64,000 nucleotides of DNA from assembly GCA_049515895.1 (NCBI GenBank), contig JBEKTQ010000006.1, positions 64,234 through 128,233 on the forward strand. The letters are read 5' to 3'. Made by a program: the position numbers and the translations under genes. Positions 5,886 through 61,929 of this stretch are shown one piece after another. Within the stretch, counting starts at the first letter, position 1. The number at the start of each line of letters is the position of its first letter. Below the pieces are notes generated by a model. The model saw only the letters and a program-made list of their open reading frames with translations. It was not told where the DNA came from and ran no database searches. The stretch is from Candidatus Bathyarchaeia archaeon (GTDB lineage Archaea; Thermoproteota; Bathyarchaeia; Bathyarchaeales; Bathycorpusculaceae).

Positions 5886-6029
5886 CAAAACCATTCCAAC
5901 CTAAACGAACAACTTTTAGCGGCAATGTTGCAGTATTCTTTCATATTAGTGCAGAAAAATGTGACCAAACGCGCGGCGTGCTAATCTTGTGCGAAATGTT
6001 ATGACATTTTCTTAATGCTGTCTTGATTT

Positions 6030-6050
6030 AAAAAATAAAAAAAGAAAAAG
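6030..6050 (-). terminator. Oligo-T archaeal terminator of beta-propeller paralog 2
   Basis: T-rich run on the minus strand just after the stop codon. Confidence 0.5.
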
Positions 6051-6067
6051 GGGTTTTGACTATTTGT

Positions 6068-28479: not shown

Positions 28480-28680
28480 ATGCCTGAAACATCCATTAAC
28501 ATAACCGAAAAACTACAGAAGATTGGTCAAACAGCCCAGGAATATAAAGATGCCATTGTTAATCAATTCAAGGATATGGAAGTCGACGTGAAAGATTGGA
28601 ATTTTGCCGTTGGAAAAGCAGACAAGGAATACACGGTTGAAGTTAACGTTAAGCTCGGAATTCGGCCAAAAAAAACTTAA
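28480..28680 (+). CDS. Hypothetical protein (66 aa)
   Basis: Strong GGAGGTG RBS; TTTTTAAA box upstream. Confidence 0.75.
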   Translation: MPETSINITEKLQKIGQTAQEYKDAIVNQFKDMEVDVKDWNFAVGKADKEYTVEVNVKLGIRPKKT

Positions 28681-45094: not shown

Positions 45095-45415
45095 ATGGAC
45101 GAGATGGAAGATTTTTTCCCAGCCTTAGAAGAGAAAGAGCTCAAAGAAGGCACAATGAAGCTAGTTTCGGTTGAAGACACGCCAATCTTACTCATTAAGC
45201 AGTTCGGTCAAATTTTCGCGATTGATAACCGGTGTCCACACCAAGGCTGCGGTTTCTCCGGAGGAAACTTGGATGGCACGGTAATTGTTTGTCCTTGCCA
45301 TGATTGGCGTTTTGATCTTAGAACAGCGGAATACGAAAAAGAACCCATGATGAAGCTGATGAAGTACGAGTGGATAATAAAAGAAGGCAAAATCTGGGTA
45401 AGGATTGAAGAATAA
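45095..45415 (+). CDS. Rieske [2Fe-2S] ferredoxin
   Basis: CPH...CPCH ligands. Confidence 0.9.
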   Translation: MDEMEDFFPALEEKELKEGTMKLVSVEDTPILLIKQFGQIFAIDNRCPHQGCGFSGGNLDGTVIVCPCHDWRFDLRTAEYEKEPMMKLMKYEWIIKEGKIWVRIEE

Positions 45416-45475
45416 AATTGTGCCTATTTGGCGATGGCTTAATATTAGTTTTTTTAATTAACGTTATTAAAGAAA

Positions 45476-45841
45476 TTGAGGCAAAACAACTTGGCAACAT
45501 TCACTCTGATAATTTATGAGGCGCCTTATGCAAAAGAAAGAGCTCTCTCTGCGCTTCGATTCGCGTGGACCTGCGACGTAGAAGGGCACGAAATAAGAAT
45601 CTGGCTGTTTGAAAATGGCGTTTACCTAGCCAAGAAAGGACAAAAACCCGCCCAAGGCTTAACCAACTATGGGCAAATGTTAGAGGACCTGATGAAAGGT
45701 GGGGCGGAAGTCAAAGCCTGCGTCGTCTGCTGCGAAGCACGCGGTCTAACCCAAGGTGACCTTATTGAGGGAGTAAAAATCGCAACCGTACATGAGCTTG
45801 TCGAGTGGACCGTGAACAGCGATAAAGTAATCACCTTTTAG
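45476..45841 (+). CDS. DsrE/TusD-like sulfur relay protein
   Basis: APY..AL.FA, ENGV, CVVCCEARG. Confidence 0.88.
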   Translation: MRQNNLATFTLIIYEAPYAKERALSALRFAWTCDVEGHEIRIWLFENGVYLAKKGQKPAQGLTNYGQMLEDLMKGGAEVKACVVCCEARGLTQGDLIEGVKIATVHELVEWTVNSDKVITF

Positions 45842-45850
45842 TGACCTTCC

Positions 45851-46075
45851 TTGGCAATTGAAAAGTTAGATGTCAGAGGAAAAATGTGCCCTATGCCAGT
45901 GGCTTTTACAAAACGCAAACTGGCAAGTATGGCTTCTGGACAAATACTCGAGGTTGTTGGAGAAGGAGAGTTGGAGTTTAATAACATTCAACATTGGGTT
46001 AAGAATAACGGAAACGAAGTTATAGAAGCCTCTAAATCTGAAACCGAGTTTAAGATTTTGATTCGAAAACGCTGA
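45851..46075 (+). CDS. tusA: TusA/SirA family sulfur carrier
   Basis: LDVRGKMCPMP. Confidence 0.9.
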   Translation: MAIEKLDVRGKMCPMPVAFTKRKLASMASGQILEVVGEGELEFNNIQHWVKNNGNEVIEASKSETEFKILIRKR

Positions 46076-46096
46076 GTGTTAGGGAGGAAAATTTGA

Positions 46097-47116
46097 TTGG
46101 GCTATCGATTAACAAAAGTCGTTTCAGTTCATGGTTGCAGCTGTAAGCTTCCTCAGTACCAACTTGGCAGACTACTTGATAACGCGGGTTTATCAGGTGA
46201 TTTCGACGAAGCGGTGCTAGCAGGTCCATGGGAAAACTCCAGTGTCGTAGAAATAGCCAAAGGAATTGCAGTTTTGAACACTTTGGATTTCTTCACCCCG
46301 ATTGTTGATGAACCAGAGATTCAAGGCAGAATTGCAGGAAGCAACGTGACCAGCGACATTTACGCCATGGCCGTAACCCACATAGTTAGTGTCTTGTCGA
46401 TTATGGCGTTTCCGGAAAATATGCCTGACGAGTTAGCCGTGGGAATGCTAAAAGGGTTTGGTGACTTCTGCCGCGAGATGGGAGCTCCGGTGGTTGGCGG
46501 GCACACGATTAGGAATCCATGGCCCATTATCGGTGGCGCAGCAACTGGAGTCGGCGATCCAAATAAGATTGTGTACACCCGCGGTGCAAAGGTCGGCGAC
46601 AGACTATTTTTGACTAAGCCACTTGGGATAGCTCCCGCGATGGCTGCCTACAGGCTTAGAAAAGAATCTGAAGGACGAGAACTGCTAAAAGAAATCCCCG
46701 AAGAGATGGTCGAAGAGGCAGTTAATGAAGCCGTTGAAGGAATGATCAGTTCGAATAAGCCTGTTGCGGAAGCCATGCAGAAGGTTCCAGTTCACGCAGC
46801 CACCGATGTCACAGGCTTCGGGCTCAAAGGTCACGCCGAGAACATGGCACTTCTCGGAAAAGTGGACATTGTTATTGACCATTTGGCTGTGATTCGTGGG
46901 ACACCTCGTTTGGCGGAACTTTTCGGTTACCCATTGTTGACTGGTGAAGCAAAGGAAACTGCAGGTGGAATGCTCATTGCCGTTGCAATAGAAGACGAAG
47001 ATGCCCTGATGAGCGAGTTGGATAAACGGAAAGTTAGGCATTTTGACGTTGGCTATGTGACAAAAGGCAATGGCAACGTGAACGTTCTAAAAGACACGAA
47101 AGTCACTGAAGCATAA
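46097..47116 (+). CDS. selD: Selenophosphate synthetase family protein, Cys form
   Basis: HGCSCK, DFFTPIVD, SDIYAM, GGHT, TKPLG, TDVTGFGL.GH, ETAGG; codon 14 is TGC. Confidence 0.92.
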   Translation: MGYRLTKVVSVHGCSCKLPQYQLGRLLDNAGLSGDFDEAVLAGPWENSSVVEIAKGIAVLNTLDFFTPIVDEPEIQGRIAGSNVTSDIYAMAVTHIVSVLSIMAFPENMPDELAVGMLKGFGDFCREMGAPVVGGHTIRNPWPIIGGAATGVGDPNKIVYTRGAKVGDRLFLTKPLGIAPAMAAYRLRKESEGRELLKEIPEEMVEEAVNEAVEGMISSNKPVAEAMQKVPVHAATDVTGFGLKGHAENMALLGKVDIVIDHLAVIRGTPRLAELFGYPLLTGEAKETAGGMLIAVAIEDEDALMSELDKRKVRHFDVGYVTKGNGNVNVLKDTKVTEA

Positions 47117-47170
47117 AGCAATCGCTAACCTTAATTCTGTTTATCCAATAGTTAAGAGAGGCGGCTAACA

Positions 47171-47500
47171 ATGAAAAAGTTGGACTATGCAGTTAAACTT
47201 TGGATGGTCAACGATAAGGGCGAATCAGTTTTCGGCGACGGCTTAGCTGAACTTCTGGAAGAGATAGACAGGTGCCATTCAATGTTGAAAGCTGCTGAAA
47301 ATTTGGAAATGTCTTACCGATATGCATTGCATCGGATTACATTGGCAGAAGACCGGCTTGGGCAGTTGTTGGTTATACGGCTTCGAGGTGGGGCGAAGGG
47401 CGGAGGATCGTCGGCGGTTACAGATTTCGGTAAAGATTTGGTTAAAAGATACCGGAGTGCTCAAGCAGAGCTTGGCAGGGAACTGAAAGAAATGCCGTGA
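47171..47500 (+). CDS. ModE-type winged-helix regulator (N-terminal domain only)
   Basis: FGDG..LL..I..S..KAA..L.MSYR..RGG..GG.S..T..G. Confidence 0.88.
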   Translation: MKKLDYAVKLWMVNDKGESVFGDGLAELLEEIDRCHSMLKAAENLEMSYRYALHRITLAEDRLGQLLVIRLRGGAKGGGSSAVTDFGKDLVKRYRSAQAELGRELKEMP

Positions 47501-47545
47501 GCGACGCTAAGTTTAACCTTTTGCATAAGCCCTGATGTGATATCT

Positions 47546-47568
47546 CGTTATTTTTGTTTGTAGCAACG
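47546..47568. promoter_or_regulatory. Putative ModE-like operator
   Basis: CGTTAT-N11-GCAACG just upstream of a TTTATA box (47586) before modA; imperfect match to the bacterial ModE box. Confidence 0.35.
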
Positions 47569-47630
47569 TATGTTTCAAAGAAATGTTTATAGGGCGACTT
47601 TACTGACTGATAACATCGAGTATATGGAAC

Positions 47631-48659
47631 ATGAATAATAAGTATGTCGCAGTAGCGTTGGTAGTCATAATAATAATGGCCTCAGCAATAGGTTATTTGG
47701 CGTACAAAGGCACATTCTCAGCCAGCTCCAACACTTCTTCTACACCTGCTCCAACGACAACTGCATCCCCTTCACCCACGCCTGTTCCAATACCTACGAC
47801 CAAACTCTCGCCCACAGCATCACCCACAACAACGGCCACACCCACCCCAACAGGGTCTCCGACGCCTCAGCCAACACCCACTCCTCAACCTGTAACTCTA
47901 ACAATATTCGCCGCATCAAGTTTAACCAACGTTATTGCAAACATGACAGCAGCATTTGACAAAGAATACAACTGCAACATAGTAGTCAACCCTGGCTCAT
48001 CCAGCACACTTGAAGCGCAAATTGCTGCAGGCTCCCCATGCGATGTCTTCATGTCCGCAGACATCAAATGGACCAACACATTGAACATCTCCACCCTCAT
48101 TTACAACAACCTTTACACTAATTTCACCACAAACAGCCTCTGCGTAATTCTGGCGCAGGGCAACCCGAAAAACATTACATCACTAGCAGATCTAGCTTCC
48201 ACCGCTACAGGCGCTAATAAAATACATCTCGTAATAGCGCAAACATCAGTACCTGTTGGCTCATACACAAACCAAACACTGACAAAAATCAATAACACAT
48301 GGGGCAACCCGAGTTCTCCAAGCTACATCAACAACGGTTCTTACCTGAACTATTACACGAATTTCCAAAACAACGTCATCAATACGCTGCAAACCGATGA
48401 ACAAGTCGTTGGCGCAGTTAACCTCAACGTAGGAGTCGCCGACGCGGGCATCGTGTTCTATTCTGATGAGGTTTACGCTAACATGATCGGAACAACAGTG
48501 CAATTCCTTTCGATACCTTCCTCAGTAAACACTGCTGGCACCTATGGCATCTGCATACCTAGCGAAACGGCTCAACCGACTGTAGCACAAGAATTTTACA
48601 ATTACTGGCTTTCAAGCCAAGGACAAGCCTTACTGACAGAATTCGGGTTTGGGTTTTAA
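47631..48659 (+). CDS. modA: Molybdate/tungstate ABC transporter substrate-binding protein
   Basis: FAASSL, GSS..L..QI..G..DVFMSA, VPVG; N-terminal TM plus Pro/Thr linker. Confidence 0.9.
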   Translation: MNNKYVAVALVVIIIMASAIGYLAYKGTFSASSNTSSTPAPTTTASPSPTPVPIPTTKLSPTASPTTTATPTPTGSPTPQPTPTPQPVTLTIFAASSLTNVIANMTAAFDKEYNCNIVVNPGSSSTLEAQIAAGSPCDVFMSADIKWTNTLNISTLIYNNLYTNFTTNSLCVILAQGNPKNITSLADLASTATGANKIHLVIAQTSVPVGSYTNQTLTKINNTWGNPSSPSYINNGSYLNYYTNFQNNVINTLQTDEQVVGAVNLNVGVADAGIVFYSDEVYANMIGTTVQFLSIPSSVNTAGTYGICIPSETAQPTVAQEFYNYWLSSQGQALLTEFGFGF

Positions 48660-48714
48660 AAGTGATATTAAGCACACTCACACCCTTTTTTAACCAATCA
48701 ACCGGTGCGCAACA

Positions 48715-49533
48715 TTGAATCATGGCTTCGCAAATTCCCTGTCGAATAAAATCATAATTTTAATTATGGGTCTCATAGTACTAACATATCTTCTTTTCGT
48801 TACTTTGCCCATTTTAGCGGTTTTTCTAAAAATAGAACCAAGCCAGGTCAGCGCTCAACTTCGTAATGCTGGGATTATAGAAGCAATAAAACTAAGCTTA
48901 ATTACATCAGCCTCAGCGACTTTGATTGCTTTTGTCTTAGCAGTACCATCTGCCTATTTCATGGTGACAAGGAATTTTCCTGGAAAAACAATCCTTGACA
49001 CTCTAATGGATTTACCGATAGTGTTACCGCCTGCCGTAGCGGGCGTCGCACTGCTATACACATTTGCGCCCAAAGGACTATTGGGCCCCTTCTTCAACAA
49101 ACCTGGATTCATCATACCAGGGAGCACGATAGCGGTAGTAATTGCAGAAACTTTTGTAGCGTCCCCATTTCTATTTAGATCCGCCAAAATTGGATTTGAA
49201 AACATGGATAGAGACGTAATTAACAGTGCCAAAATGCTGTCAGGTTCTCGCCTTAAAGTATTTTTGACAATCACCTTCCCCCTATCAATACGTGCCATAA
49301 TTTCCGGAACCATGATGACGTGGGCCAGAGCTATGGGCGAGTTTGGCGCAACCCTAATGTTCGCGGGAAACATTGCGGGCATAACACAGACAATGCCCCT
49401 GGCGATCTACATGTTTCTGTATTCTGATCCTTTAGCGGGAATCATGTTATCTATCATTTTAATCATTATTTCATTTTCGATTCTTATAATCGTTAAGCTT
49501 CTTGATCAAAAAAAGTTTGGAGCTAAAAAATGA
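48715..49533 (+). CDS. modB: Molybdate ABC transporter permease
   Basis: LPIVLPPAVAG, WARAMGEFGAT, TQTMPL. Confidence 0.92.
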   Translation: MNHGFANSLSNKIIILIMGLIVLTYLLFVTLPILAVFLKIEPSQVSAQLRNAGIIEAIKLSLITSASATLIAFVLAVPSAYFMVTRNFPGKTILDTLMDLPIVLPPAVAGVALLYTFAPKGLLGPFFNKPGFIIPGSTIAVVIAETFVASPFLFRSAKIGFENMDRDVINSAKMLSGSRLKVFLTITFPLSIRAIISGTMMTWARAMGEFGATLMFAGNIAGITQTMPLAIYMFLYSDPLAGIMLSIILIIISFSILIIVKLLDQKKFGAKK

Positions 49534-50636
49534 TCAAAGCTGATTCAATCACCAAGTCATTTGACGATAAAAAAGTACTAGAAAATCTAAGCCTAGAAGT
49601 AAAAAACGGAGAAATCTTATCTTTGCTTGGACCGAATGGTTGCGGAAAATCAACTTTGCTAAACATAGTTTCGGGCTTAATAATGCAAAATGAAGGCCAA
49701 ATTTACGTCAATGATGTTTTAGTTAGTGGAAAAGTGGGCGCAAAAAAAGTTTACATCAAGCCTTCTGAGCGCAAAATCGGGTATGTCTTTCAAACAGTAT
49801 CTCTTTTTCCTCACCTTCGGATTCAAGATAACGTTGCATACGGCTTAAAGTCGCTTCACTTACCTAGACAAGAAGTCAAAAAAAGAGCAAGTAATTTGCT
49901 TGAATTTGTGGGTCTTCTTGAATACGCAAAGTATTATCCACATCAGCTTAGCGGCGGTCAAAAGCAACGCGTTGCCTTAGCAAGGTCTTTAGCTACTGAC
50001 CCGCAAGTTCTGCTTTTGGATGAGCCTGTGTCCGCTGTAGATCCTCAATTGAGGGAATCTTTCAGGCTGGAACTTAAAAACTACCTGCAGGCGCTGAAAA
50101 TCACGGTGGTGTATGTTACTCACAATTTGTCTGAAGCGTTCGTAATGTCAGACAGGATAGCTGTGATGGGTAATGGGCGTATTGAGCAAGTGGGCAGCAG
50201 AACGGATATTTTTGATAAGCCCAGTTCATCATACGTTGCCAAGTTCCTTGGAATAAATACTTTCAAAGGCAAAGCTATTGAAACCCGCGGCGGCCTCTTA
50301 GAAATTGAAGTAAATGGAATGCTATTGTTGGCACCTCAAGCGCCTAATTTAGTCGGAAAAAGTGTTATTGCAACAATTAAGCCCGAAGACATAATGCTTT
50401 CAAAATCAGCTGATTTCAATCAAGTTGGTGTTTCACGCAATTCTGTCGAAGGCGTCATTACTGAGATGGTTCAAATGAGATCAAACGCTCAAGTTACAAT
50501 AGATGCAGGATTCTTGGTAAAGACACGAGTTCCTTTAAGCGATATAAAGAATTTGGGACTCAACTTAGGAGACAAAGTATACCTGCGTTTCAATGCTGAC
50601 GCATTAAACGTATTTGAAGACAACAGCCGTAACTAA
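49530..50636 (+). CDS. modC: Molybdate ABC transporter ATPase with TOBE domain
   Basis: GPNGCGKS, LSGGQ, LLDEP; C-terminal TOBE-like region. Confidence 0.88.
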   Translation: MIKADSITKSFDDKKVLENLSLEVKNGEILSLLGPNGCGKSTLLNIVSGLIMQNEGQIYVNDVLVSGKVGAKKVYIKPSERKIGYVFQTVSLFPHLRIQDNVAYGLKSLHLPRQEVKKRASNLLEFVGLLEYAKYYPHQLSGGQKQRVALARSLATDPQVLLLDEPVSAVDPQLRESFRLELKNYLQALKITVVYVTHNLSEAFVMSDRIAVMGNGRIEQVGSRTDIFDKPSSSYVAKFLGINTFKGKAIETRGGLLEIEVNGMLLLAPQAPNLVGKSVIATIKPEDIMLSKSADFNQVGVSRNSVEGVITEMVQMRSNAQVTIDAGFLVKTRVPLSDIKNLGLNLGDKVYLRFNADALNVFEDNSRN

Positions 50637-50960
50637 AATTTTGGTAATCTGGGTCTTCAAAGAAATTGTTGGGATTTGAATTCTGCTGGGGATGGCCAGA
50701 AATATTTTAGATTCGGCACTTTTCACTCGATCAAAAGGTCAAAAGAAAATGTTAAAGGCGACGCGCCGACAGCGCCCAGATATCAAATGTTGCCTTCACA
50801 GTGGCAGTGGTTGTGCTCTTCTGGATCTTCAGGTACAGCGAATAAACCGAACAAAGTAAAATGTTTATACTTGTTTCTCTTTTTGGGCATCCTAACCCCA
50901 ATTAGAACCTAATGCAATGAATGATATAAACGTAGTTTTAGATTCTACGCGAAGGGAGAC

Positions 50961-51482
50961 TTAGGGATCCCCGCATGTTACGGCTTCCTTCACCACTAAA
51001 TCGGCAATTTCTCTAGTTTGTGTTAAAATCCTAAACACAGGAACGCTGAACGCTGTTGCTTTCTTTGTTTCTACACCTGACTCCGTTATCAGACCTGAAA
51101 CTGCAATGACAGATTCATCCAAGTAGCTTTTCACTTCGTCAGCCGTTTTCGCAGCGATAATCTTGGGAAGTGTCTGCTCACGCTCGAAATCTTCTAAAAC
51201 CACGTAATCCAACCCGGCGAGAAATGGCAAAATCTCCCTTACATTGAGTCGTTTTTTGATAAATACGACAGTTTCTTCGCGTGGAACCGCCACTATGACT
51301 TCTGCTCCGGCGTTGCGGTATCTTTCGGTTTCGGTGGCAGGGGTATCCAAAGTCGGGATACGAACCATCTCTTTGATTGCCCCAACAGTGTAACTACGGC
51401 TCTTTAGTTCCGTGATTAAGTGCTCAATTATTGTGGTTTTTCCGGAGTGCTTCCCGCCGATAACTGCAATCATTTTTGGCAA
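50961..51482 (-). CDS. mobB: MobB-like protein (paralog 1)
   Basis: GGKHSGKTT P-loop; canonical KH replaced by KE. Confidence 0.75.
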   Translation of the reverse strand: MPKMIAVIGGKHSGKTTIIEHLITELKSRSYTVGAIKEMVRIPTLDTPATETERYRNAGAEVIVAVPREETVVFIKKRLNVREILPFLAGLDYVVLEDFEREQTLPKIIAAKTADEVKSYLDESVIAVSGLITESGVETKKATAFSVPVFRILTQTREIADLVVKEAVTCGDP

Positions 51483-51568
51483 ACCTTGACACCTACCACC
51501 CTTAGACATAAGAGTCATATATTATTTTTAGCAGAACAAATTTCGGGTTGGCAGCCACTTGATTCGAT

Positions 51569-52954: not shown

Positions 52955-53160
52955 ATCCAGCTTGGGAATTGGATATCATGAGGTTTATTTAAAACTAATG
53001 CATAAAGAAAGGTTTTCAGCGATTGCCCAGCAGGAACCAGAGGACAGGCCTTCAACCGAAGTTGACTTGATCCAAGGCTAAATAATATTTAAAATTCCAG
53101 AACCTAGGCGCAATTTATAAAAAGAGAGTAATTATCTTTCCAACTGGAGCGCGAACTCGT

Positions 53161-53727
53161 ATGGTTTTGGTTGTTGCCGCGGTCGGCGTGAGTGGTTCAG
53201 GAAAAACGGTTACGTTAGAATACTTGATTTCTCGCCTATCAGAGGAAGGCTACAAAATTGGGTCAATTAAGCATGTTCACCATAAAGGTTTCACGATGGA
53301 TAAAGAAGGCACCAACACTTGGCGTTATGCTAAGGCAGGTTCAAAAGTAATCGTTGCAATCTCTCCAGAAGAGATAGACGTCATAAAGAAAACCCAAATG
53401 GCGCTTAACAACTTAGACCAAATAACAGCACTGCTCGAAGGTGAGAAACTTGACTTGGTTTTCATCGAAGGCTTTCACAGCTTAATCGCAAAAAGGGTGG
53501 ATGTGCCCAAAATTGTCACGGCAAAAGATGAGGAAGGACTTAAGCAAACGTTGGAGGGCACCGTTGATCCGATCATTGCTATTGCAGGTGTGGTAGCTGC
53601 AAAATCAGCGAGCAATGAATACCGTAACATACCAATAGTCAAAGTCCCCAAAGATGGGCAAAAACTCGTTGATTTAATCAAAAAGCAGCTAGTCCAAAGC
53701 AAACCTTGCTCAGAAGCAACTGAATGA
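53161..53727 (+). CDS. mobB: Molybdopterin-guanine dinucleotide biosynthesis protein B (paralog 2)
   Basis: GVSGSGKT, IKHVHH..D.EG.NT, IEGF. Confidence 0.88.
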   Translation: MVLVVAAVGVSGSGKTVTLEYLISRLSEEGYKIGSIKHVHHKGFTMDKEGTNTWRYAKAGSKVIVAISPEEIDVIKKTQMALNNLDQITALLEGEKLDLVFIEGFHSLIAKRVDVPKIVTAKDEEGLKQTLEGTVDPIIAIAGVVAAKSASNEYRNIPIVKVPKDGQKLVDLIKKQLVQSKPCSEATE

Positions 53728-53739
53728 GGGAGAAGCTAC

Positions 53740-54828
53740 TTGACCAAATTGGCAGCGCTAATTTTGGCAGGTGGAAAAGCTCGACGATTCCAGGTTAAAA
53801 GCGGAGGAGTGTGGGAGGACAAGGCGCTTGCCACTCTTTCGGGTAAGCCTTTGCTGATCCGCGCTGTTGAAAATGTGCAGGGGATCGTCGACGACGTTGC
53901 AGTAAGTGTGAACGATGAGCAACGTAGGGTAAAGTACGCTAGAATCCTCAAAGAACACTCGTTAGAATCCGTACGGGTTGTGATTGATGAAAAAACAGAT
54001 ATCAGCGGACCCACTGTCGCGATTATGTCAGGGCTCAGCCGTGTTCAGGCTGATTATTGTCTCACTTTGCCCGTTGACATGCCCTTTCTGCAACCAAAAG
54101 TTGCGGATTACCTGTTTAAGCAAGCAGTGGGGTTCGAGGTCGCTACTCCAATGTGGCCTAACGGAAGGCTTGAAACCCTGTTAACTGTGCTGGATCGGGA
54201 AATCGGGTTAGAAATCACTAAGACCTTATGCGCGCTTAAACGTCCACGTTCAGACGACATTCAACGTGGCGCCAGCAAAGCCCTGCTTGTATCTGCCGTG
54301 AACGAAATTAAGGTGCTTGACCCTGAACTGAAAAGCTTCATCAACATCAACTCCAAAGAAGACCTTAACCTGCTGCAAACCCGTCGAGCTCACGGTCCAG
54401 TCAAACAAAATGTAAGCTTGATTTTGGGAACTACCCCCGTTTCTGATTTAAATCATCTCAGAAAAGGAGCCAAAATGATCCAGCAGGCTAAACTTACAGA
54501 AGCACAGGGCGTTTTTTCTTCATGTATCAAGAGTTTTGAGGACAAAGAGTTGAGTTTTTGGGCTGGAGTAAGCGGCGAAAATCAGGGTGAAACCTTGCTG
54601 AAACTTGGCGGACAGCAACAGGAACATAAAACGGCTGTCGAGCTGGATTTTGAAGGTAAAGAGGCTTTCTTGAGATCGGCGAACAATTACCGAATTGAAG
54701 CAGAGCGGTATGAAGAACATGGTTGCCGACTACTAGCTGAGCGTGGGTTGGCTGATAAGGCATGGTGCGAGTCATGGGCCATGGGAAAAACCGCACATGG
54801 GCACAGGTACTCGTCAAAAGTTGCTTAA
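53740..54828 (+). CDS. mobA: Molybdenum cofactor guanylyltransferase with C-terminal helical extension
   Basis: ILAGG..RF..DKA, GP, DMPF, FININS. Confidence 0.85.
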   Translation: MTKLAALILAGGKARRFQVKSGGVWEDKALATLSGKPLLIRAVENVQGIVDDVAVSVNDEQRRVKYARILKEHSLESVRVVIDEKTDISGPTVAIMSGLSRVQADYCLTLPVDMPFLQPKVADYLFKQAVGFEVATPMWPNGRLETLLTVLDREIGLEITKTLCALKRPRSDDIQRGASKALLVSAVNEIKVLDPELKSFININSKEDLNLLQTRRAHGPVKQNVSLILGTTPVSDLNHLRKGAKMIQQAKLTEAQGVFSSCIKSFEDKELSFWAGVSGENQGETLLKLGGQQQEHKTAVELDFEGKEAFLRSANNYRIEAERYEEHGCRLLAERGLADKAWCESWAMGKTAHGHRYSSKVA

Positions 54829-56105
54829 ACACCAAACGAAGCTATTTCTTGTTTGCCGAATAAGGTGACTTCCACTTCGCTCCTTTTTGCCAAGGCGGTA
54901 TGTGGCGGCACAATCGTGTAGCCATTAGATTTTACGATGGTTGTTAAGGCACTTGAGCCGCCTTCTGCCGGCTCGGCTAAGAACTTGCCTTTACCGTGGA
55001 TTATTCGTAATAGCAAAAACTTGAATTGCGGGCCAGAATCCAAAGCCTTAGTTAACTCTGCAGTCAAACGCGGCTGCATCCCCGTTTCATCTAAGCCAGT
55101 GAAAAGGCTAATTAAGGGTGCAGCGAAAAGGTAGAAACCGGCGATGCATGACCCGATGTGCCCAGGCAACATGACGATCGGTTTGCCTTTGACAAGACCG
55201 AAGCCTGAAACCGCGCCAGGTCTTAGCAGGATCCCTTGAACAACAACGCCTGGTTTTCCGAGCGAGTTTACCGCATCTGGGACAAAATCTTTCACCCCGA
55301 CCGAGGAGCCGCCTATAGTGAGGACAATATCCGAATGCGCCAATGCTTCACTGATTTTAGCTTGCACCTTATCCATGGAATCAGGCATGATTCCTAGCGT
55401 TGAAGTTGACGCACCGAGTTCAGATGCTAAGCCTGAGACGACAAGTGCGTAGTTGTTGGCGATTTTTTCGGGGCTTTTTTGGCATTGCCTAATTAACTCG
55501 TCTCCCCCCGACAAAATGGCGACCGTTGGCTTCCTGAATACTTCAGCCCTCGTTAACCCGATAGAGGCGAGCAACCCAATGTCTTGCGGCCTCAAAACCT
55601 GGCGTTTCCGTAGAATCAAAGCGCCCTTTTTCACATCATCGCCTTGCGGTATTATACCTTCGCCGGGCTTGATTGACCTGAGAACTTGAATTTGGTCGCC
55701 ACTTAGCCTGGTTTCCTCCACTTTTACGGTTGAAGATGCACCTTTTGGGATTGGGGCTCCACAGGCAACGTAAACGGCTTCTCCGTTCCCAACACTTACA
55801 GCAGTTGGGTAGTCAACTGGGAACAGCTTTCCAACAACCTTGAAAGTGGCGGGCTTGTTGACTGATGCGCTTTTGGTCAGAGCGGGGTTGATTGCGTAGC
55901 CGTCAATGAAGGTTTTATCGTAGCCTGGGATGTTAACGTCCGAAATTGCACCTTTTGCTAAGACTCTGCCTAAAGCTTCCGTTAGTGGAATAATCTCACT
56001 ATGTAGCTTGGTTGCGTGTGCGGCTTCAAGGAGCTGTTTTTGCGCGTCGAGAGGGTTTGCACGTTTGGGTAGCCTCTTAATGTCGGGTCTAATCACTTGG
56101 GGCAC
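54825..56105 (-). CDS. moeA: Molybdopterin molybdotransferase
   Basis: LGRVLA, DGYA, GDEL, GGSSVG.KD, RPG, LPG. Confidence 0.9.
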   Translation of the reverse strand: MPQVIRPDIKRLPKRANPLDAQKQLLEAAHATKLHSEIIPLTEALGRVLAKGAISDVNIPGYDKTFIDGYAINPALTKSASVNKPATFKVVGKLFPVDYPTAVSVGNGEAVYVACGAPIPKGASSTVKVEETRLSGDQIQVLRSIKPGEGIIPQGDDVKKGALILRKRQVLRPQDIGLLASIGLTRAEVFRKPTVAILSGGDELIRQCQKSPEKIANNYALVVSGLASELGASTSTLGIMPDSMDKVQAKISEALAHSDIVLTIGGSSVGVKDFVPDAVNSLGKPGVVVQGILLRPGAVSGFGLVKGKPIVMLPGHIGSCIAGFYLFAAPLISLFTGLDETGMQPRLTAELTKALDSGPQFKFLLLRIIHGKGKFLAEPAEGGSSALTTIVKSNGYTIVPPHTALAKRSEVEVTLFGKQEIASFGV

Positions 56106-56909
56106 CTACAGGATTATTCTTTCGGCTCCTGTGTAAATGTTCATTCGGGTCCCGCGGACGAAGCCTATAAGGGCAATGTTTGCTTTCTCTGCCGACGAGA
56201 TGCCTGAGTTCAAAACCGCTGCCACAGAAGCAATAATGGGCAAGCCGACTTTCGCGGCTTTGTAAATCATGTCGCCGGGAACTCGCCCAGTTATAATCAT
56301 GAAGCACTCGCTGAAATCCACTTTGTCTAGCGAAGCTTCTCCTATGACTTTGTCAACTGTGTTATGTCTGCCAACGTCTTCGGAAAAAGCGACCATTGTG
56401 CCGTCTGCCTTGAAAATACCTGAGTCATGGAGGCCCCCAGTTTCTTTGAAGCCTTTAGCACGGCTGTTCATTTGTTTTATGCAGTCAAGGATAACTTGCG
56501 CCTTCACCTTCAGCGGCGACTTCACCAAAGGTATTTTCTCATCATGCTGGTACGGGGATGCGCTGGACTTAATCAACGGTATGATTCGGGTGCTGCGGCG
56601 TGAGTGCTTCATGCGCTCATCCAAGTCCACTGTTGCCTTCAGCTTGATCTGGCACCTGTTCTCAGTTTCGCTGGTAAGTAGCGACTCGATTTCGTCGACC
56701 CTCCGCAAAATGTCCTCCGCAAGCAAATATCCGACTGCAAGCTCTTTGAATTGGGAGGGAGAGCACCAAATCACAAAAGTGTAAACGTCGTTAAGTGAGA
56801 TTTGGAGAGGAACCTCCTCGGCGACACAATCCACCCTCTTTTCAGCTTTCCCCGTTGATAAGTCAAGCCTCAGCATGTCAACTTGCCGCATAACTCTATC
56901 CTCGCGCAT
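56106..56909 (-). CDS. fdhD: Formate dehydrogenase accessory sulfurtransferase
   Basis: EEVP, LAVGYL, TGGLH, EDVGRHN..DK, TGR. Confidence 0.9.
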   Translation of the reverse strand: MREDRVMRQVDMLRLDLSTGKAEKRVDCVAEEVPLQISLNDVYTFVIWCSPSQFKELAVGYLLAEDILRRVDEIESLLTSETENRCQIKLKATVDLDERMKHSRRSTRIIPLIKSSASPYQHDEKIPLVKSPLKVKAQVILDCIKQMNSRAKGFKETGGLHDSGIFKADGTMVAFSEDVGRHNTVDKVIGEASLDKVDFSECFMIITGRVPGDMIYKAAKVGLPIIASVAAVLNSGISSAEKANIALIGFVRGTRMNIYTGAERIIL

Positions 56910-57053
56910 CGTTGTGTTTTCAACTCAGCGCCTTTGATAAGTCATTCGGCTGGAGCAAGAGATGGCTAAAAACTATTTAACATGCGAGGATACCTACAGA
57001 ACCTATACCTCTTTTATTTTAAATAGTTCCATACATATAGAGAATAAAGAGGA

Positions 57054-57290
57054 TTGCATTTGAACTCAAGAATGATTGGGCTAATTCGGGGCGCAATAAT
57101 TATCGTTATAGCATTAATAGTCGGAGGAATACAGATTTTGCACGTGTACAACATTTACGGGGCTGCGCATGTAAACAAATGGATTTTCTACGGTGTAGTG
57201 GCAATAGTCGGAATCATTGGCATTATACAAGTAGCGTACAGCGCATTAAAAGAAAAACCAAAACGGGTTGGTCCAATAGCAAACACGTAG
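57054..57290 (+). CDS. Small 2-TM membrane protein
   Basis: Two hydrophobic helices; GAGG RBS. Confidence 0.6.
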   Translation: MHLNSRMIGLIRGAIIIVIALIVGGIQILHVYNIYGAAHVNKWIFYGVVAIVGIIGIIQVAYSALKEKPKRVGPIANT

Positions 57291-57525
57291 ATTATAACAG
57301 ACCTTTTTCGAGAGACAGAATTACGGCCCGATTCTTAACAGCTTCAGCCATCACCTACAAAGTTAACAGAACCCGAGGGATGATTCGCAAAACAGTGGTC
57401 ATTAGAGGTAGTGCTCTAAGTCAATTAGCAAGTAGAAGAAGAAGTGTGCTTGCTAGGTTAAATCATCTTCTTTTGAAGTAAAATAGGAAAAGAGTTGACT
57501 TCAGATGATCAACCAAAAACGGAAG

Positions 57526-58341
57526 TTAGAGATATTTTTCGTAGAATTTCATTTGTGGGTTGTTGGCTTTGTTGACGAAGATCTTGCCTGTGCCATGCTC
57601 TGATAGGTCGCCGAGGAACACGTAGAAGGGCCCTGCCACGCTTTGAGTATCGTCAATTTTGACTTTGGGCTTGACGCCATCAATTGTGAATGTGGGCATG
57701 ACTTCCTCGATTGTGCCTGTTATGACGATTTTTCCGCCTGTCATGCATGCGCCAGCGCGAGTTTCACATTCCTTGTCAACGAGGATTGCGCCATCACTCA
57801 TATGATAGCCTAGGAATCGGCCAGCTCCACCTTTGATTTTTAGAACTCCGCCGCGCAGATAACAGCCTACGTCGCTGCCGACTTTGCCGTCAACAGTGAT
57901 CAAACCGCCTTTCATGCCTGTGCTGCTGCTTCCGCGGTATGGGGAAGCCAAGTAATCGCCAGCGTCGCCGTGAATTTCGATTGTTCCAGCTTTCATTTCG
58001 TTGCCTGTCCATCCGCCTACGTTGCCGTTTACAATTATTTTGCCGCCAAGCATTTTTTCGCCCGTGTGCATTCCGCAGTCGCCGTTGATGACTATTTCGC
58101 CACTTGTCATGCATGAACCTACGCGTTTAACTTTGCCGGCGTCGCCGTTGATGGTTATGGCTGGAGTTTCAGCGCTATCTTCAGTTATTTCAAAGAGGTC
58201 GCATAGTTTCAGCGGTTGGTTGCCTTCGGTTACTGGCAGGTTTGCTATTTCAGTGGCGGTTTTGCCTTTGAACACGTCCGGGCTGATGCATGCTGCCTGA
58301 ACAGGTACCTCAAACTTTCTCAGTGGCCTAAGAGTTATCAT
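57526..58341 (-). CDS. fwdC: Formylmethanofuran dehydrogenase subunit C
   Basis: GxxMxGGxIxxxG beta-helix repeats; GDL..HG.G. Confidence 0.93.
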   Translation of the reverse strand: MITLRPLRKFEVPVQAACISPDVFKGKTATEIANLPVTEGNQPLKLCDLFEITEDSAETPAITINGDAGKVKRVGSCMTSGEIVINGDCGMHTGEKMLGGKIIVNGNVGGWTGNEMKAGTIEIHGDAGDYLASPYRGSSSTGMKGGLITVDGKVGSDVGCYLRGGVLKIKGGAGRFLGYHMSDGAILVDKECETRAGACMTGGKIVITGTIEEVMPTFTIDGVKPKVKIDDTQSVAGPFYVFLGDLSEHGTGKIFVNKANNPQMKFYEKYL

Positions 58342-58343
58342 TT

Positions 58344-60035
58344 TTACACCGTCGCCTTTATTGTCAATTTTTCTGGAACCCGCAGGTAGTGATCAAACAC
58401 CGGGTAATTATCATACTCAACGGTCCAATACTGCCTGAACTTTCGCTTCATCTCTTCGTCGATAATGCACGGCTCTTTCGTTTGGACATCAAGCCACATG
58501 GTTCTGCCACTGGCTTCGCCCACGACTTTGCCGTTTTTAACCACGATTTTCCCGTCCTTAACAGTGTAAGCTGCATGCTTGAACGCCCTACGCACAGTCT
58601 TGTAGGTGGCGGCTATGTCGGTTGTCTCAGGATTAATGTTGTATATTGCAACGTCCGCGTCTGCGCCAACGCCAAGATGCCCCTTGTTTTTGAGCCCTAA
58701 TGCTTTGGCTTGCCCCGCACGAGTCATAATTGCAAGCTCGTAAAGCGTCAGTTCCCTATCGATTGATGGTAGCAAACTCTTTTTCTGTGCTTTCTTATGA
58801 CAATGATTTAATGTTGCCGTCCGCGCTTGCTTGCTCATTAGCCAAGCGAGGATTCGCGGGTAAGCAAAGAAGGGCCCAGCGTTGGGGTGGTCCGTTGTCA
58901 GGAAGATTTTCCAGGGGTCCTTAATCAGCAACGCTAACTCTAAACCGATTGACCACTGTGTAGCGTTAACAGCGTTGTTTTTCTTGTAATGAAACGGAAT
59001 AATTCCGCCGCTTGTCTCAGTTTCAATGTCGCTGTTAACCCACTTGTGTCCGCTTAACTCATAGAGCGTGAACTCAAATGGTCCGTCAGCCGTCATGGTT
59101 GTGGTATCTGTGAATATGATCTGTCCCATGTCGACGGTCATGTGATTATGTGCATTGAGATAACCTGCAATTTCTTCCGCTCCCGATGTAAAGTGGCTCC
59201 AACTGTCGCCGCCGAAACTGCTGAACTGCAAATGAGTTATGTGTGCCACAGGTTTGCCGTCTGTGGATAAGTCTTCAAGCGCTCTCATTGTGTCCAATGT
59301 TGTCGTGTAGTTTCCCGGCAGCCCAAGATTGTTTGTGTGAAGATGAATTGAGTGAGGAAGATTCAGCAGTTTGTTAACTTTAGCTAAACCCCTAATTATC
59401 TCGCGTGGAGTAATGCAAAAGTTTGGAACCTGGTCATCTATGCTATGGACGTTGTGCCCGAAACCCCAAGATTCCAAGCCTCCTGGGTTAACGATTTTTA
59501 TTGCGTAACCTTTGGTCGTATCCAGCATCCATGCGACGTGGCGCGCGCATTCTTCAATATTGCCTTTTGCGAGGTTTTCAAGTACAAACCACCAGTCGCC
59601 CAGAAGCGGGTAGGTGGCTTTGTCAACGAGTGGAATATCGTTTAATTCTTCATGAGTGTGCTTCGCTTCCAAGGGCGCCATTGATGGATTCATGATTGTT
59701 GTGTAACCCATACGTGAATAACGGTAGCCAGTCGTGAAAGTGGATGGAATCGAATAGCCGGTGCCTGAACGTGTTAATCGGGTTTTGCGCTCCACATCCT
59801 TAACGTGGTCTTCGGGACGAATAATTCTGCCAGTATTAACCTCTCCGCCTGCAACGTGGGTGTGAATATCAACACCACCCGGCATGACTGTTAAGCCAGT
59901 GGCGTCTATCACGTGAGCTTTGCGCGTGACTTTTCCAACGATTTTGCCGTTCTTGATAGCTACATCCATTTTTTCGCCGTTAATCCCGTTTATGGGGTCA
60001 AAGACGAAGCCGTTTTTTATTAGTAACTCAGTCAT
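58344..60035 (-). CDS. fwdA: Formylmethanofuran dehydrogenase subunit A
   Basis: GGVDIHTH, KIVNPGG, H.H.NNLG.PGN, TTDHPN; ATGA overlap with the fwdB stop. Confidence 0.95.
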   Translation of the reverse strand: MTELLIKNGFVFDPINGINGEKMDVAIKNGKIVGKVTRKAHVIDATGLTVMPGGVDIHTHVAGGEVNTGRIIRPEDHVKDVERKTRLTRSGTGYSIPSTFTTGYRYSRMGYTTIMNPSMAPLEAKHTHEELNDIPLVDKATYPLLGDWWFVLENLAKGNIEECARHVAWMLDTTKGYAIKIVNPGGLESWGFGHNVHSIDDQVPNFCITPREIIRGLAKVNKLLNLPHSIHLHTNNLGLPGNYTTTLDTMRALEDLSTDGKPVAHITHLQFSSFGGDSWSHFTSGAEEIAGYLNAHNHMTVDMGQIIFTDTTTMTADGPFEFTLYELSGHKWVNSDIETETSGGIIPFHYKKNNAVNATQWSIGLELALLIKDPWKIFLTTDHPNAGPFFAYPRILAWLMSKQARTATLNHCHKKAQKKSLLPSIDRELTLYELAIMTRAGQAKALGLKNKGHLGVGADADVAIYNINPETTDIAATYKTVRRAFKHAAYTVKDGKIVVKNGKVVGEASGRTMWLDVQTKEPCIIDEEMKRKFRQYWTVEYDNYPVFDHYLRVPEKLTIKATV

Positions 60036-61522
60036 TTGCATGCCACCTCAATTTTAGGCTCTTTCTTTGCTTTTTGTGCCTTAATCACTCGGACTTCCTT
60101 AAGAATTCTCTTTAGAAGCTGCTCGTCGTTTAGGATCCCTGGCGGAGGTTCAACCACCTTGCGCAGCATTATTGGCACGTGATCCATGCGGTAAGCTGAG
60201 CCTTCGTATTCTATTCCGCACCACTGGGTTGGAAACACTACGTCGCCTAGCCTTGAGATGGCGTTCATGTCTGGGTTAATGGTGATTAACGGGTGCTTCA
60301 TCATATTTTGCATGGCTGACTTAGGAAAGTTCGCACCTGGATCTGATGAAATAACTAACGTTGCATCATTGTCGCCGCGTCTCAACAGGTCGATGGTTGT
60401 GAATTCCCCCGGGTTGTATTGTGGGTACCCTTGTGAGAAGTCGAGGGCATATGGGTAACCTGTGGACCAAGCGAAAACCACGTTTGCACCCGTGACGTTG
60501 AAGTGTCCTCGCATCGGAGAGATTACGAACTTGGTTCTCCTGTTCAGGTCCCTTGTCAACGCGATTGCTATTTCGATATTTCTGAATCTGCCTGCACTTT
60601 GAGTTAAGCCGAGACCGAAGAAGATGACGCCGAAATTGCAGTTCACCATTGCGTCGGTTACTTCTTTGAGGTATTCAACTTGGACACCGCCAACTTGTTC
60701 AACATCCAGTTCTTGATCTACGACTAAACATCTCATGGCGTCTAGTATTTCATAGTCCTTGTTTGGTTGAACTTGAATAAAGTAATCAGCTGCCTCGGCA
60801 GTCATGGTTTTTCTAACGTCGACAACAATCAGTTTACGCCCCGCCTTGTTAATTGCCTGTGGCGGTCGGTCTACAGTGCATGCTTGTGGGGCAATTGGAG
60901 GATTATAACTATTTAATATTCGCCTTGAGGCTGCTTCTACTTTTTTCTTGCTTTGGGTACCTTTTAATTTTTCTAGGTAACTTTTCCATTCGCTACCCTC
61001 AAAGCGTCCATCAGTGAAACTGGTATATCTTTCAAGATGCCTTGGATGTGAAGACCAGGGGTCGCATGCCCAGTAAACTATTAGATCTGCACGATGTCTG
61101 ATTTGCCCAAGAGTGCATGCGGGGATACCGATTTCTTGTGTAGCCATAACTGATGGACCGTGGCAAACACTGCAGCAATTATCTAATGCTGAGCCTAATT
61201 CTTCAGCTAACTGAACGCCGATTCTCTGAGCTTCACAGGTTGAACTACTCCAACCGAACAACAGAGGATACTTCGCGTTTGTGAGAATCTGGGCTGCTTT
61301 GTGTACTGCTTCATCCATCGGCACAGGAACTAACTTACCGTCCTTTCGTATAAGCGGTTTTAGAATTCGCTCATCGCTCTTGTACCCGTGAACCATTTTA
61401 GCTTCACATTGGGCACAGCCGTTCTTCATCTTAACAATCTCGTTGTTTTCCACTGTTACTTCTAGGTCATCACACAAGCAGCCGCAAATTGGACAAACAA
61501 CTGATTTTATAGTTTCCGTCAT
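60032..61522 (-). CDS. fwdB: Formylmethanofuran dehydrogenase subunit B (Cys ligand)
   Basis: CPICGCLCDD, SVCHGP, HPRH.ERY, MRGHFNV, YRMD. Confidence 0.93.
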   Translation of the reverse strand: MTETIKSVVCPICGCLCDDLEVTVENNEIVKMKNGCAQCEAKMVHGYKSDERILKPLIRKDGKLVPVPMDEAVHKAAQILTNAKYPLLFGWSSSTCEAQRIGVQLAEELGSALDNCCSVCHGPSVMATQEIGIPACTLGQIRHRADLIVYWACDPWSSHPRHLERYTSFTDGRFEGSEWKSYLEKLKGTQSKKKVEAASRRILNSYNPPIAPQACTVDRPPQAINKAGRKLIVVDVRKTMTAEAADYFIQVQPNKDYEILDAMRCLVVDQELDVEQVGGVQVEYLKEVTDAMVNCNFGVIFFGLGLTQSAGRFRNIEIAIALTRDLNRRTKFVISPMRGHFNVTGANVVFAWSTGYPYALDFSQGYPQYNPGEFTTIDLLRRGDNDATLVISSDPGANFPKSAMQNMMKHPLITINPDMNAISRLGDVVFPTQWCGIEYEGSAYRMDHVPIMLRKVVEPPPGILNDEQLLKRILKEVRVIKAQKAKKEPKIEVACK

Positions 61523-61527
61523 CAAGA

Positions 61528-61929
61528 TTACCTTCCATACTCCTCTTTCAAAAGTTCATCAAGCGTTAAGACGACTTGGTTTGGGGCAGGTTCAACTTCA
61601 ACCGCAAAACCCTTAAACAGAGGCATACCCATTCCGAAGGTTTCATCTCCGCAGATGGCATTGGCCCATAGACCGCAAGGGATGAAAACCAACCCGGGAT
61701 TGGAACCGTAGGGGTTTTTAACCGCTTTAACTATGACTGAACCGTACTTTGAAGTGACCTTAACGTTTGTTCGGCTTTTTATGCCCATTTTTTTCATGTC
61801 AGCTTCATCTATAATGCAGATGGCGGAGCCGTCAAAGTACTCTTTTGAGCCTTTTCCCATCTCTTTTCCAACACCTTGATCGATTGTTCTACCAGTAATT
61901 AGAATTACGCTTAGCTTTTGCTCTACCAT
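61528..61929 (-). CDS. fwdD: Formylmethanofuran dehydrogenase subunit D
   Basis: LITGRTIDQG, FIP.G.WAN, GMP.FKG. Confidence 0.93.
   Translation of the reverse strand: MVEQKLSVILITGRTIDQGVGKEMGKGSKEYFDGSAICIIDEADMKKMGIKSRTNVKVTSKYGSVIVKAVKNPYGSNPGLVFIPCGLWANAICGDETFGMGMPLFKGFAVEVEPAPNQVVLTLDELLKEEYGR

Follow-up and report, generated by a model that had tools for sequence, protein, structure and literature searches.

The window analysed here is a 64,000-nucleotide (nt) stretch of a Candidatus Bathyarchaeia genome (GenBank assembly GCA_049515895.1, contig JBEKTQ010000006.1, positions 64,234 to 128,233), and the element at issue within it is a set of three genes, dsrE-tusA-selD (45476-47116). 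These genes encode a DsrE-like protein, a TusA/SirA-like protein, and a selenide, water dikinase (SelD). They are preceded by a gene for a Rieske-type ferredoxin and followed by genes for a small ModE-like regulator and for ModABC, a predicted molybdate/tungstate-type ATP-binding cassette importer. From the Rieske gene to modC all genes are co-oriented, with successive gaps of 60, 9, 21, 54, 130, and 55 nt and then a 4-nt overlap, and dsrE-tusA-selD may be co-transcribed with the upstream Rieske gene. Beyond them lie mobB, mobA, moeA, fdhD, and the fwdDBAC genes of formylmethanofuran dehydrogenase (Fwd). The original prediction, made from the letters of the window, read this arrangement as an orphan SelD working with sulfur carriers on the cofactor of Fwd. 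Pfam and NCBIfam profiles confirmed every gene that it named, each at the coordinates that it had given (Table 1). In our analysis, however, the retained SelD and carriers in a genome without machinery for selenocysteine (Sec) point to a use of selenium that is still to be found and give no clear lead to the adjacent tungsten and molybdenum genes.

Gene gaps were taken from the coordinates of open reading frames (ORFs), and the window proteins were scanned with the two profile collections named above. The window's own genome (G000; other genomes, contigs, and loci carry G, C, and L numbers) is 3.18 Mb long in 53 contigs and is rated 100% complete. The census of the genus comprised 120 genomes, G000 included, and loci of ~19 kb around selD from 75 genomes were mapped with the window proteins.

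The selD gene and its carrier genes

The SelD protein scores above two equivalog cut-offs (NF010705, 338.5 bits against 291, over residues 4-338; TIGR00476, 241.8 bits against 125) and carries the AIRS and AIRS_C domains. Its N-terminal loop reads VHGCSCKLPQ, with the first Cys encoded by a TGC codon at 46136-46138, so that the Cys-type SelD first proposed is borne out. Residues H12, G13, C14, C16, and K17 are invariant across 46 sequences, and exactly at the Cys14 codon five relatives, among them G424, G260, and G272, have TGA. The best solved relative is human SEPHS1 (3FD5, 174 bits), above E. coli SelD (3U0O, 112 bits), which is consistent with the archaeal/eukaryote-type selenophosphate synthetase lineage that the prediction had named. 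The precedent that it had seen in SelD-like genes of Sulfolobales and Thermoproteales does not carry over. That family (NF038049), as the relevant passages of Li et al. (2014, PMC4210487) present it, shares an AIR-synthase fold and SirA-like neighbours with the SelD of the window, but the window protein is a true SelD and no member of it, at 34.2 bits against a cut-off of 250. Judging from its 84-88% identity to the SelDs of eight congeners that decode Sec, the protein would form selenophosphate from selenide and ATP.

Both proteins encoded directly upstream have conserved cysteine motifs, and DsrE is a proposed chalcogen (selenium) relay. The C.VC motif of DsrE is at least 95% conserved in 62 orthologs, and Cys13, Pro14, and Pro16 of TusA are invariant in 43 sequences. 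The best NCBIfam models for TusA are of the YedF type (NF008242, 48.1 bits; TIGR03527, 36.6 bits), both below cut-off. YedF is a SirA/TusA-like domain fused to a DsrE-like CGxC domain and linked to SelD. The window has the same two domain types side by side and directly upstream of selD, with CPxP and CxxC conserved, but in two separate genes; the TIGR03527 cut-off of 110 bits is not reached by TusA, and DsrE gives no match to that model at E <= 0.01. Two earlier papers connect YedF-type SirA/TusA plus DsrE proteins with SelD and propose that they act ahead of selenophosphate formation (PMC2276186; PMC5322559). By analogy, DsrE and TusA might act like a split YedF and carry reduced selenium on their cysteines to the Cys14/Lys17 loop of SelD, which would convert it, with ATP, to selenophosphate.

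Of the proposal that DsrE and TusA are tied to SelD and, with it, to the cofactor of Fwd, the first half stands. DsrE occurs in 83 of the 120 genus genomes, 82 of them with SelD; 35 genomes have neither gene, and the three discordant genomes are all fragmentary. All adjacency counts given here are based on the 63 genus loci in which 3 kb or more upstream of selD is available; dsrE and tusA adjoin selD in 59 of these, and in nine genomes that have selD and dsrE on different contigs both genes are kept. The second half, Fwd as the target, is left with synteny at the level of the lineage, as set out below. The Rieske protein keeps its Cys/His ligand motifs across 53 orthologs. An ortholog of 66% identity adjoins MobB-MobA-FdhD-Fwd in the SelD-less genomes G010 and G001, so the gene cannot be counted as part of the selenium module. 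It sits at the junction of the selenium module and the molybdenum-Fwd genes, and its ties to Fwd are no weaker than those to the module; the module and modE-modABC are placed as one block between it and mobB.

Loss of selenocysteine decoding

No partner for SelD had been recognised in the window, and the same holds for the complete genome, where searches for tRNA-Sec, PSTK, SepSecS, SelB, SelU, and YqeB/YqeC found no pathway that would explain SelD. ARAGORN found no tRNA-Sec in G000, and the best match to RF01852 (41 bits against a threshold of 47) falls on an ordinary 72-nt tRNA. SepSecS had no match, PSTK reached 53.8 bits against a cut-off of 290.5, and a PSTK-aSelB fusion was absent. Among 14 candidates SelU/YbbB (TIGR03167) gave 0 matches at E <= 0.01, and YqeB (TIGR03309) and YqeC (TIGR03172) gave no match in the genome. 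On the side of selenoneine-type pathways, TIGR04348, which we take to be the SenB model, reached at best 31.5 bits against a cut-off of 300, and no FGE-sulfatase domain (PF03781; SenA/EgtB-type) was found in G000. The negatives for the Sec genes are credible because the same searches succeed in close relatives: SepSecS scores 468-493 bits in all five genomes with a TGA-containing SelD, tRNA-Sec is above threshold in four of these five, and ARAGORN finds tRNA-SeC in the Sec island of each of three relatives.

The sister genomes G230 and G605, whose SelDs are 87-88% identical to that of G000, carry a Sec island with a 731-amino-acid (aa) PSTK-aSelB fusion, SepSecS, and tRNA-Sec. By blastn, this island (~7.1 kb in G230, ~4.9 kb in G605) is absent from G000, where its flanks are contiguous at C21:~28505-28654. 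Beside the island lies a gene for an HdrA-MvhD (FlpD) fusion. In the Sec-decoding sisters it has two in-frame TGA codons (contexts DCSI*IEG and CNW*GYAGAD). Both TGA codons of the G605 copy, 71% identical to that of G000, align with Cys (Cys211 and Cys677) in G000, a clean Sec/Cys pair inside one genus. The empty site and the Sec/Cys pairs show that the organism itself has lost Sec decoding and that the absence is no assembly gap.

Sec decoding and the PSTK-SelB fusion in Bathyarchaeota have already been published (Mukai et al., as cited in PMC9499178). Sister species carry that system together with the same DsrE-TusA-SelD module; G000 differs in that the system is lost and its SelD has Cys, not Sec. 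In all Sec-decoding Bathyarchaeia that we examined, the fusion is ~730 aa long and consists of KTI12, GTP_EFTU, D2, and aSelB_III domains. In distant families the neighbours of selD are an activase, a double-cubane reductase, Sec-type SelD, PSTK/SelB, SepSecS, and tRNA-Sec in G152, and TusA, Sec-type SelD, PSTK/SelB, and SepSecS in G094. Near the G094 Sec island lies an ORF of the UGSC family (PF24696, 62 bits; L238:8313-8657, minus strand) that may be a further selenoprotein gene. In G119, from another family of the class, a Cys-type selD stands tail to tail with a gene for a TPMT-like methyltransferase (L239:9989-11750); the region also has transposase, integrase, and restriction-modification genes, and the two may be a mobile pair for selenium methylation or detoxification.

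The relevant passages of Lin et al. (2015, PMC5322559) list only one archaeon with an orphan SelD and place archaeal SelD in four euryarchaeal orders only. Literature on Bathyarchaeia together with selenophosphate or selenocysteine, supplementary tables aside, yielded nothing on an orphan SelD, and in a 2026 review of the prokaryotic selenoproteome the string "Bathyarchae" is absent.

Retention of the module in the genus

SepSecS is above its cut-off in 10 of the 120 genus genomes, and the PSTK-aSelB fusion occurs in exactly those 10. Of the 84 genomes with SelD, 69 have an intact, full-length Cys-type copy and G424 has a Sec-type one; in G016 and G377 the gene is truncated or frameshifted, and the other 12 copies are partial or broken. 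Sec machinery is missing from 61 of the 69 genomes with intact Cys-type SelD, the single-contig genomes G014, G400, and G577 included. In these 61, SelD is an intact 339-aa ORF at 67-88% identity. The other eight (G230, G605, G398, G567, G584, G412, G606, and G613) decode Sec, and thus an ortholog of the G000-type SelD serves Sec synthesis in congeners. In about one in 12 species of the genus, then, the orthologous module feeds the archaeal Sec pathway of PSTK-aSelB fusion, SepSecS, and tRNA-Sec, which makes at least a Sec-containing HdrA-MvhD.

A SelD phylogeny had been suggested as a check. Our codon tree of 74 genes (FastTree, rooted on G051) is a gene tree and may differ from the species tree. 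The Sec-type genes branch at its base, and one clade of 22 genomes is entirely without Sec machinery. G000 groups with G569 and G570, both Sec-less, next to the Sec-decoding G605, G230, G398, and G567. Every module gene in the 22-genome clade is under purifying selection. Median ratios of nonsynonymous to synonymous divergence (dN/dS, by Nei-Gojobori), which are rough because dS is saturated at medians of 1.0-1.8, are 0.067 for SelD (115 of 231 pairs computable; median dS 1.7), 0.077 for DsrE, 0.114 for TusA, 0.082 for the double-cubane reductase described below, 0.116 for LysR, and 0.169 for Rieske. For comparison, SelD has a dN/dS of 0.050 in Sec-positive genomes and of 0.089 between G000 and G569/G570, at a dS of ~1.0. 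Rough as these values are, a 1-kb frame free of constraint would not have remained open over such divergence.

The module of most relatives is larger than that of the window. Its recurrent layout is Rieske, a divergent LysR, DsrE, TusA, a ~430-aa gene of the HGD-D family, SelD, often a PhoU/AbrB-type regulator, and ModE-ModABC-MobB-MobA-MoeA-FdhD-Fwd. In many relatives the first gene matched downstream of selD, or of selD-PhoU, encodes the ModE-like regulator. LysR adjoins the module in 52 of the 63 loci, and module genes are about as frequent in Sec-positive as in Sec-less genomes. The closest family for this LysR is that of selenium metabolism, NF040786 (a truncated copy reaches 234 bits; cut-off 250), a placement that led us to drop the idea, raised by its PBP_like domain, of a molybdenum- or tungsten-responsive regulator. 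The HGD-D gene between tusA and selD encodes a double-cubane-cluster reductase (NF040772, 498.6 bits; cut-off 350) and adjoins selD in 39 of the 63 loci, 33 of them in Sec-less genomes. G000 has no tblastn match to LysR and no reductase between tusA and selD; it has the minimal form of the module.

The reading that we favour, and consider probable, is that dsrE-tusA-selD is a selenium-activation module that was kept under selection after the Sec island was lost and whose consumer is still to be found. G000 lacks the island, the LysR, and the adjacent reductase, has an HdrA-MvhD with Cys, and encodes no known consumer of selenophosphate. The module is nevertheless intact here, and in the Sec-less clade purifying selection acts on its genes; most likely, then, it continues to supply selenophosphate to such a consumer. 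Several points weigh against this. Since no selenophosphate consumer was found, continued function is argued from conservation alone, and the dN/dS values that enter the argument are rough, as noted. Sec loss in the lineage of G000 could be fairly recent because its next relatives decode Sec; the closest SelD relatives, the Sec-less G569 and G570, are only 80% and 88% complete. The minimal form in G000 could mark a module on its way out. Finally, because DsrE is unmatched and TusA is below the cut-off, "split YedF" is an analogy of domain content and not orthology.

A wider claim, which we advance only tentatively, is that this genome and most other species of its Bathy-6-type genus have a trait that depends on selenophosphate but not on Sec and is unlike Sec, 2-selenouridine, the selenium-dependent molybdenum hydroxylases (Se-Mo hydroxylases), and selenoneine-type pathways. 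Selenophosphate for that trait would come from the conserved DsrE-TusA-(double-cubane reductase)-SelD operon, which has a selenium-type LysR of its own. It might be used in an iron-sulfur or pyranopterin cofactor that bears selenium, such as that of the double-cubane reductase or of Fwd.

Earlier sets of unexplained selD genes each led to a new use of selenium; the selenoneine pathway, for instance, reportedly originated from orphan selD genes. The cofactor trait of Se-Mo hydroxylases was likewise derived from such genes in the account given by Haft and Self (2008, PMC2276186). The orphan SelD cases described in the relevant passages of three papers (PMC2276186; PMC2432076; PMC5322559) resemble ours in having selD without Sec or 2-selenouridine genes, a SirA/TusA-type neighbour, and molybdenum genes nearby. 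They differ in that their marker YqeB/YqeC is absent from G000, as are SenB-type and FGE-sulfatase-domain genes, and in that the nearby molybdenum/tungsten enzyme in the window is the bis-pyranopterin enzyme Fwd and not a molybdenum hydroxylase. The present genus offers the 61 genomes with an intact, constrained SelD and carrier genes without a known consumer, three of them on a single contig, and its 10 Sec-decoding and 36 SelD-less members form a natural loss-of-function series for finding how selenophosphate is used. Enrichment cultures may exist for some relatives. Were the module instead a slowly decaying remnant, its value would be smaller, as an example of stepwise Sec loss with Sec-to-Cys replacement in HdrA-MvhD.

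Candidate consumers and neighbouring genes

The reductase that sits inside the selenium operon of relatives could itself be the consumer or obligate partner of the module. In this proposal the double-cubane [8Fe-9S] enzyme (NF040772) would reduce a selenium compound for SelD, or its cluster would receive selenium from selenophosphate, and G000 would use a paralog on contig C3; we think this rather unlikely. We know of no chemistry for such a role, nor of a physiological substrate of the family. Its position between tusA and selD and its constraint in the Sec-less clade speak for it, and in the distant family represented by G152 an activase and an NF040772 protein (477 bits) stand directly beside a Sec-type SelD. 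In the parts of the Haft 2022 preprint that treat the family (10.1101/2022.07.06.499078), 955 of 970 NF040772 proteins are in SelD-containing assemblies and selenium in the cofactor is listed as a formal possibility, but shared anaerobic niches are also offered as a cause of the co-occurrence. Likewise, among the STRING neighbours of YedF that Lin et al. (2015, PMC5322559) report are a "2-hydroxyglutaryl-CoA dehydratase subunit", its activase, and the selenium-type LysR. Against the proposal, no reductase adjoins selD in G000 or in at least 20 further genomes of the genus. G000 does keep a paralog, accompanied by two activase genes at C3:~131-134 kb, but it is 36% identical and, at 337.2 bits, falls just below the NF040772 cut-off of 350. 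The reductase is a better-evidenced candidate partner than Fwd in the genus, although not in the operon of G000 itself. The C3 locus also encodes a NapH-like ferredoxin.

The model with which the analysis began, that SelD with DsrE/TusA supplies selenium or sulfur as a terminal ligand on the tungsten/molybdenum-bis-pyranopterin cofactor of Fwd, beside or in place of FdhD, now appears improbable to us. Position counts in its favour. In the window selD stands in one run with modE, modABC, mobB, mobA, moeA, fdhD, and fwd. Among 42 long loci (at least 8 kb on either side of selD), 23 have Mo/W/Fwd genes within ~10 kb of selD, and the linkage survives rearrangement in G034, G599, and G366, where Fwd-FdhD-MobAB lies on the other side. 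Four further loci (G591, G579, G007, and G577) end with PhoU-ModE after selD, and mod genes may lie just beyond. The block is common to the genus and its sister genus, in which G260 and G272 keep FwdBD-Rieske next to the module, and in G051, of another family, MobA-FdhD is directly beside SepSecS, PSTK/SelB, and SelD. There is also a chemical parallel in the labile selenium on the molybdenum cofactor of Se-Mo hydroxylases, whose discovery from orphan selD genes was cited above. A ModA ortholog, moreover, occurs in 61 of the 120 genomes, nearly all of them SelD-positive.

Other observations count against the model. No Mo/W/Fwd gene is nearby in 19 of the 42 long loci, and at the selD loci fetched from the nine genomes that have selD apart from dsrE, none of the tested Mo/W/Fwd genes was seen; where annotated, the neighbours there are housekeeping genes, for example for a Toprim-domain protein or an alcohol dehydrogenase. 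The same synteny exists in the Sec-decoding sisters, where SelD already has a client, and all of it lies within one order and may be inherited rather than selected. FwdB occurs in 102 of the 120 genomes, 28-29 of which belong to the 36 SelD-less ones, and in the SelD-less G010, G001, and G003 the MobB-MobA-FdhD-FwdCABD block is intact without a selenium gene, the Rieske ortholog being present in two of the three. Fwd can therefore mature without SelD. Many other SelD-positive genomes lack ModA or have a broken copy, and since all SelD-less genomes fall into a single FwdB subclade (65-69% identity), its co-occurrence with SelD may go back to one event. YqeB/YqeC are absent, and FdhD is present for the usual sulfuration. 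FdhD-dependent sulfuration of bis-molybdopterin guanine dinucleotide enzymes is well known, and TusA has a role in molybdenum cofactor synthesis in E. coli. The window resembles that system in having FdhD beside mobA, moeA, and fwd, but the FdhD-Fwd clusters are unchanged in the SelD-less congeners, and no FdhD-SelD link was seen. The position of the module beside modE-modABC, the cofactor-maturation genes, and fwd is best read as synteny inherited within the family, not as evidence of a shared pathway.

Fwd was also considered as a selenoprotein. G000 has a single fwdB by tblastn, an open frame of 497 aa without interruption (60032-61525, minus strand). Cys121 of its product matches in alignment Cys118 of the M. 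wolfeii protein (5T5I_B, 453.8 bits), a residue that we take to be the tungsten ligand, so the window does have Cys and not Sec at this place, as first read. A selenoprotein FwdB as the reason for the selD-fwd adjacency was rejected, there being no in-frame TGA in the Sec-decoding G605, G230, G260, and G051; because these four relatives lack it, an ancestral Sec-containing Fwd does not explain the adjacency. In G424, FwdB is split into two pieces. The neighbours shared by 12 loci with selD away from the molybdenum cluster were screened as well, and no candidate consumer emerged among them; those that recur are a Toprim-domain protein, RNase HII, a proton pyrophosphatase, an amino-acid kinase, an aldehyde dehydrogenase, a metallo-beta-lactamase-fold protein, and two small or unassigned proteins.

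We also consider it improbable that SelD, DsrE, and TusA are relics of a recently lost Sec trait, without present function in G000. The losses of the island, LysR, and adjacent reductase agree with it, as does the Sec decoding of the nearest well-sampled SelD relatives, and broken selD copies are found in G011, G016, G587, G589, G594, G607, and G612. However, the long-lasting open frame in the 61 Sec-less genomes and the low dN/dS at a dS above 1 in the all-orphan clade, together with that between G000 and its orphan sisters, argue for constraint, and the conservation of DsrE and TusA parallels that of SelD. Broken selD copies were dropped as a sign of decay, since FwdB is also full of stops in G016, G594, G607, and G612. 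Stops and frameshifts in both selD and a core gene such as fwdB suggest that these four assemblies are error-prone and that their apparent pseudogenes are not to be trusted.

Very improbable, last, is the variant in which DsrE/TusA would bring sulfide to the Cys-type SelD for the synthesis of thiophosphate: both are sulfur carriers in characterised systems, and the relevant passages of two papers propose thiophosphate synthesis for the SelD-like family of Crenarchaeota (PMC4210487; PMC9312934), but the window protein is an equivalog-level SelD far below the NF038049 cut-off, it is closely similar to SelDs of congeners that must make selenophosphate, and G424, G260, and G272 have TGA (Sec) at its Cys14 codon.

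Table 1. Features of the window (positions within its 64,000 nt) and related features in G000 and other genomes (contig or locus label before the position).
Feature	Position	Strand	Basis or remark
Rieske-type [2Fe-2S] ferredoxin	45095-45415	+	PF00355, 72.3 bits
DsrE-like, CxxC (CVVC)	45476-45841	+	PF02635, 80.9 bits
TusA/SirA-like, CPxP	45851-46075	+	PF01206, 73.8 bits
SelD, Cys-type selenide, water dikinase	46097-47116	+	NF010705, TIGR00476
Small ModE-N-terminal-like helix-turn-helix regulator	47171-47500	+	TIGR00637, 55.8 bits (below cut-off 98.5); PF00126, 27.5 bits; no Mop/TOBE domain
ModA	47631-48659	+	TIGR01256, 89.8 bits (cut-off 62.5)
ModB	48715-49533	+	TIGR02141, 195.2 bits (cut-off 182.6)
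ModC	49530-50636	+	ABC_tran plus TOBE domain
MobB	50961-51518	-	TIGR00176 (mobB pair: 81.7 and 88.2 bits; cut-off 76.2)
DUF3131 protein, 461 aa	51569-52954	-	between both mobB genes
MobB (second)	53161-53727	+	TIGR00176 (pair, as above)
MobA	53740-54828	+	NTP_transf_3
MoeA	54825-56105	-	three MoeA domains
FdhD	56106-56909	-	TIGR00129, 194.7 bits (cut-off 140.9)
FwdC, FwdA, FwdB, FwdD (fwdDBAC)	57526-61929	-	formylmethanofuran dehydrogenase, Cys-type FwdB
HdrA-MvhD	G230, L240:~5400-7162		
HdrA-MvhD	G605, L242:12188-~14700		
HdrA-MvhD	G000, C21:28530-30974 (= L271:4531-6975)	-	
PSTK-aSelB fusion	L240:12049-14244	+	
PSTK-aSelB fusion	L242:7538-9733	-	
PSTK-aSelB fusion	L237:10699-12888	+	
PSTK-aSelB fusion	L238:11539-13716	+	
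Double-cubane reductase	L017:124-1419	+	directly upstream of selD, as in 38 further genus loci
Double-cubane reductase	G152, L237:7351-9529		477 bits; with ATP-dependent activase
NapH-like ferredoxin, double-cubane-like protein, two activases	G000, C3:~130058-134083 (L270:4059-8084)		

The Fwd subunits score above cut-off with TIGR03122 (244 bits), TIGR03121 (817 bits), and TIGR03129 (543 bits), and FwdD, at 108.7 bits with NF042908, is below the cut-off of 175, with a Molydop_binding domain present. FwdB aligns with the M. wolfeii protein in two blocks (residues 4-174 and 227-485), and the ~50 residues between them are without a structural counterpart. The MobA ORF is 362 aa long, of which approximately the first 215-230 residues are covered by the MobA/NTP-transferase match, leaving the C-terminal third unmatched. 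In ModA the first 85-90 residues are matched in some relatives only, and many orthologs align from residue 84-89; this partial matching may mean that the protein begins further downstream than the ORF does, or that it comes in two forms. The DUF3131 gene, which the original prediction had not named, recurs at the same place in several relatives (G020, G605, G571, G398, G422, G601, and G377).

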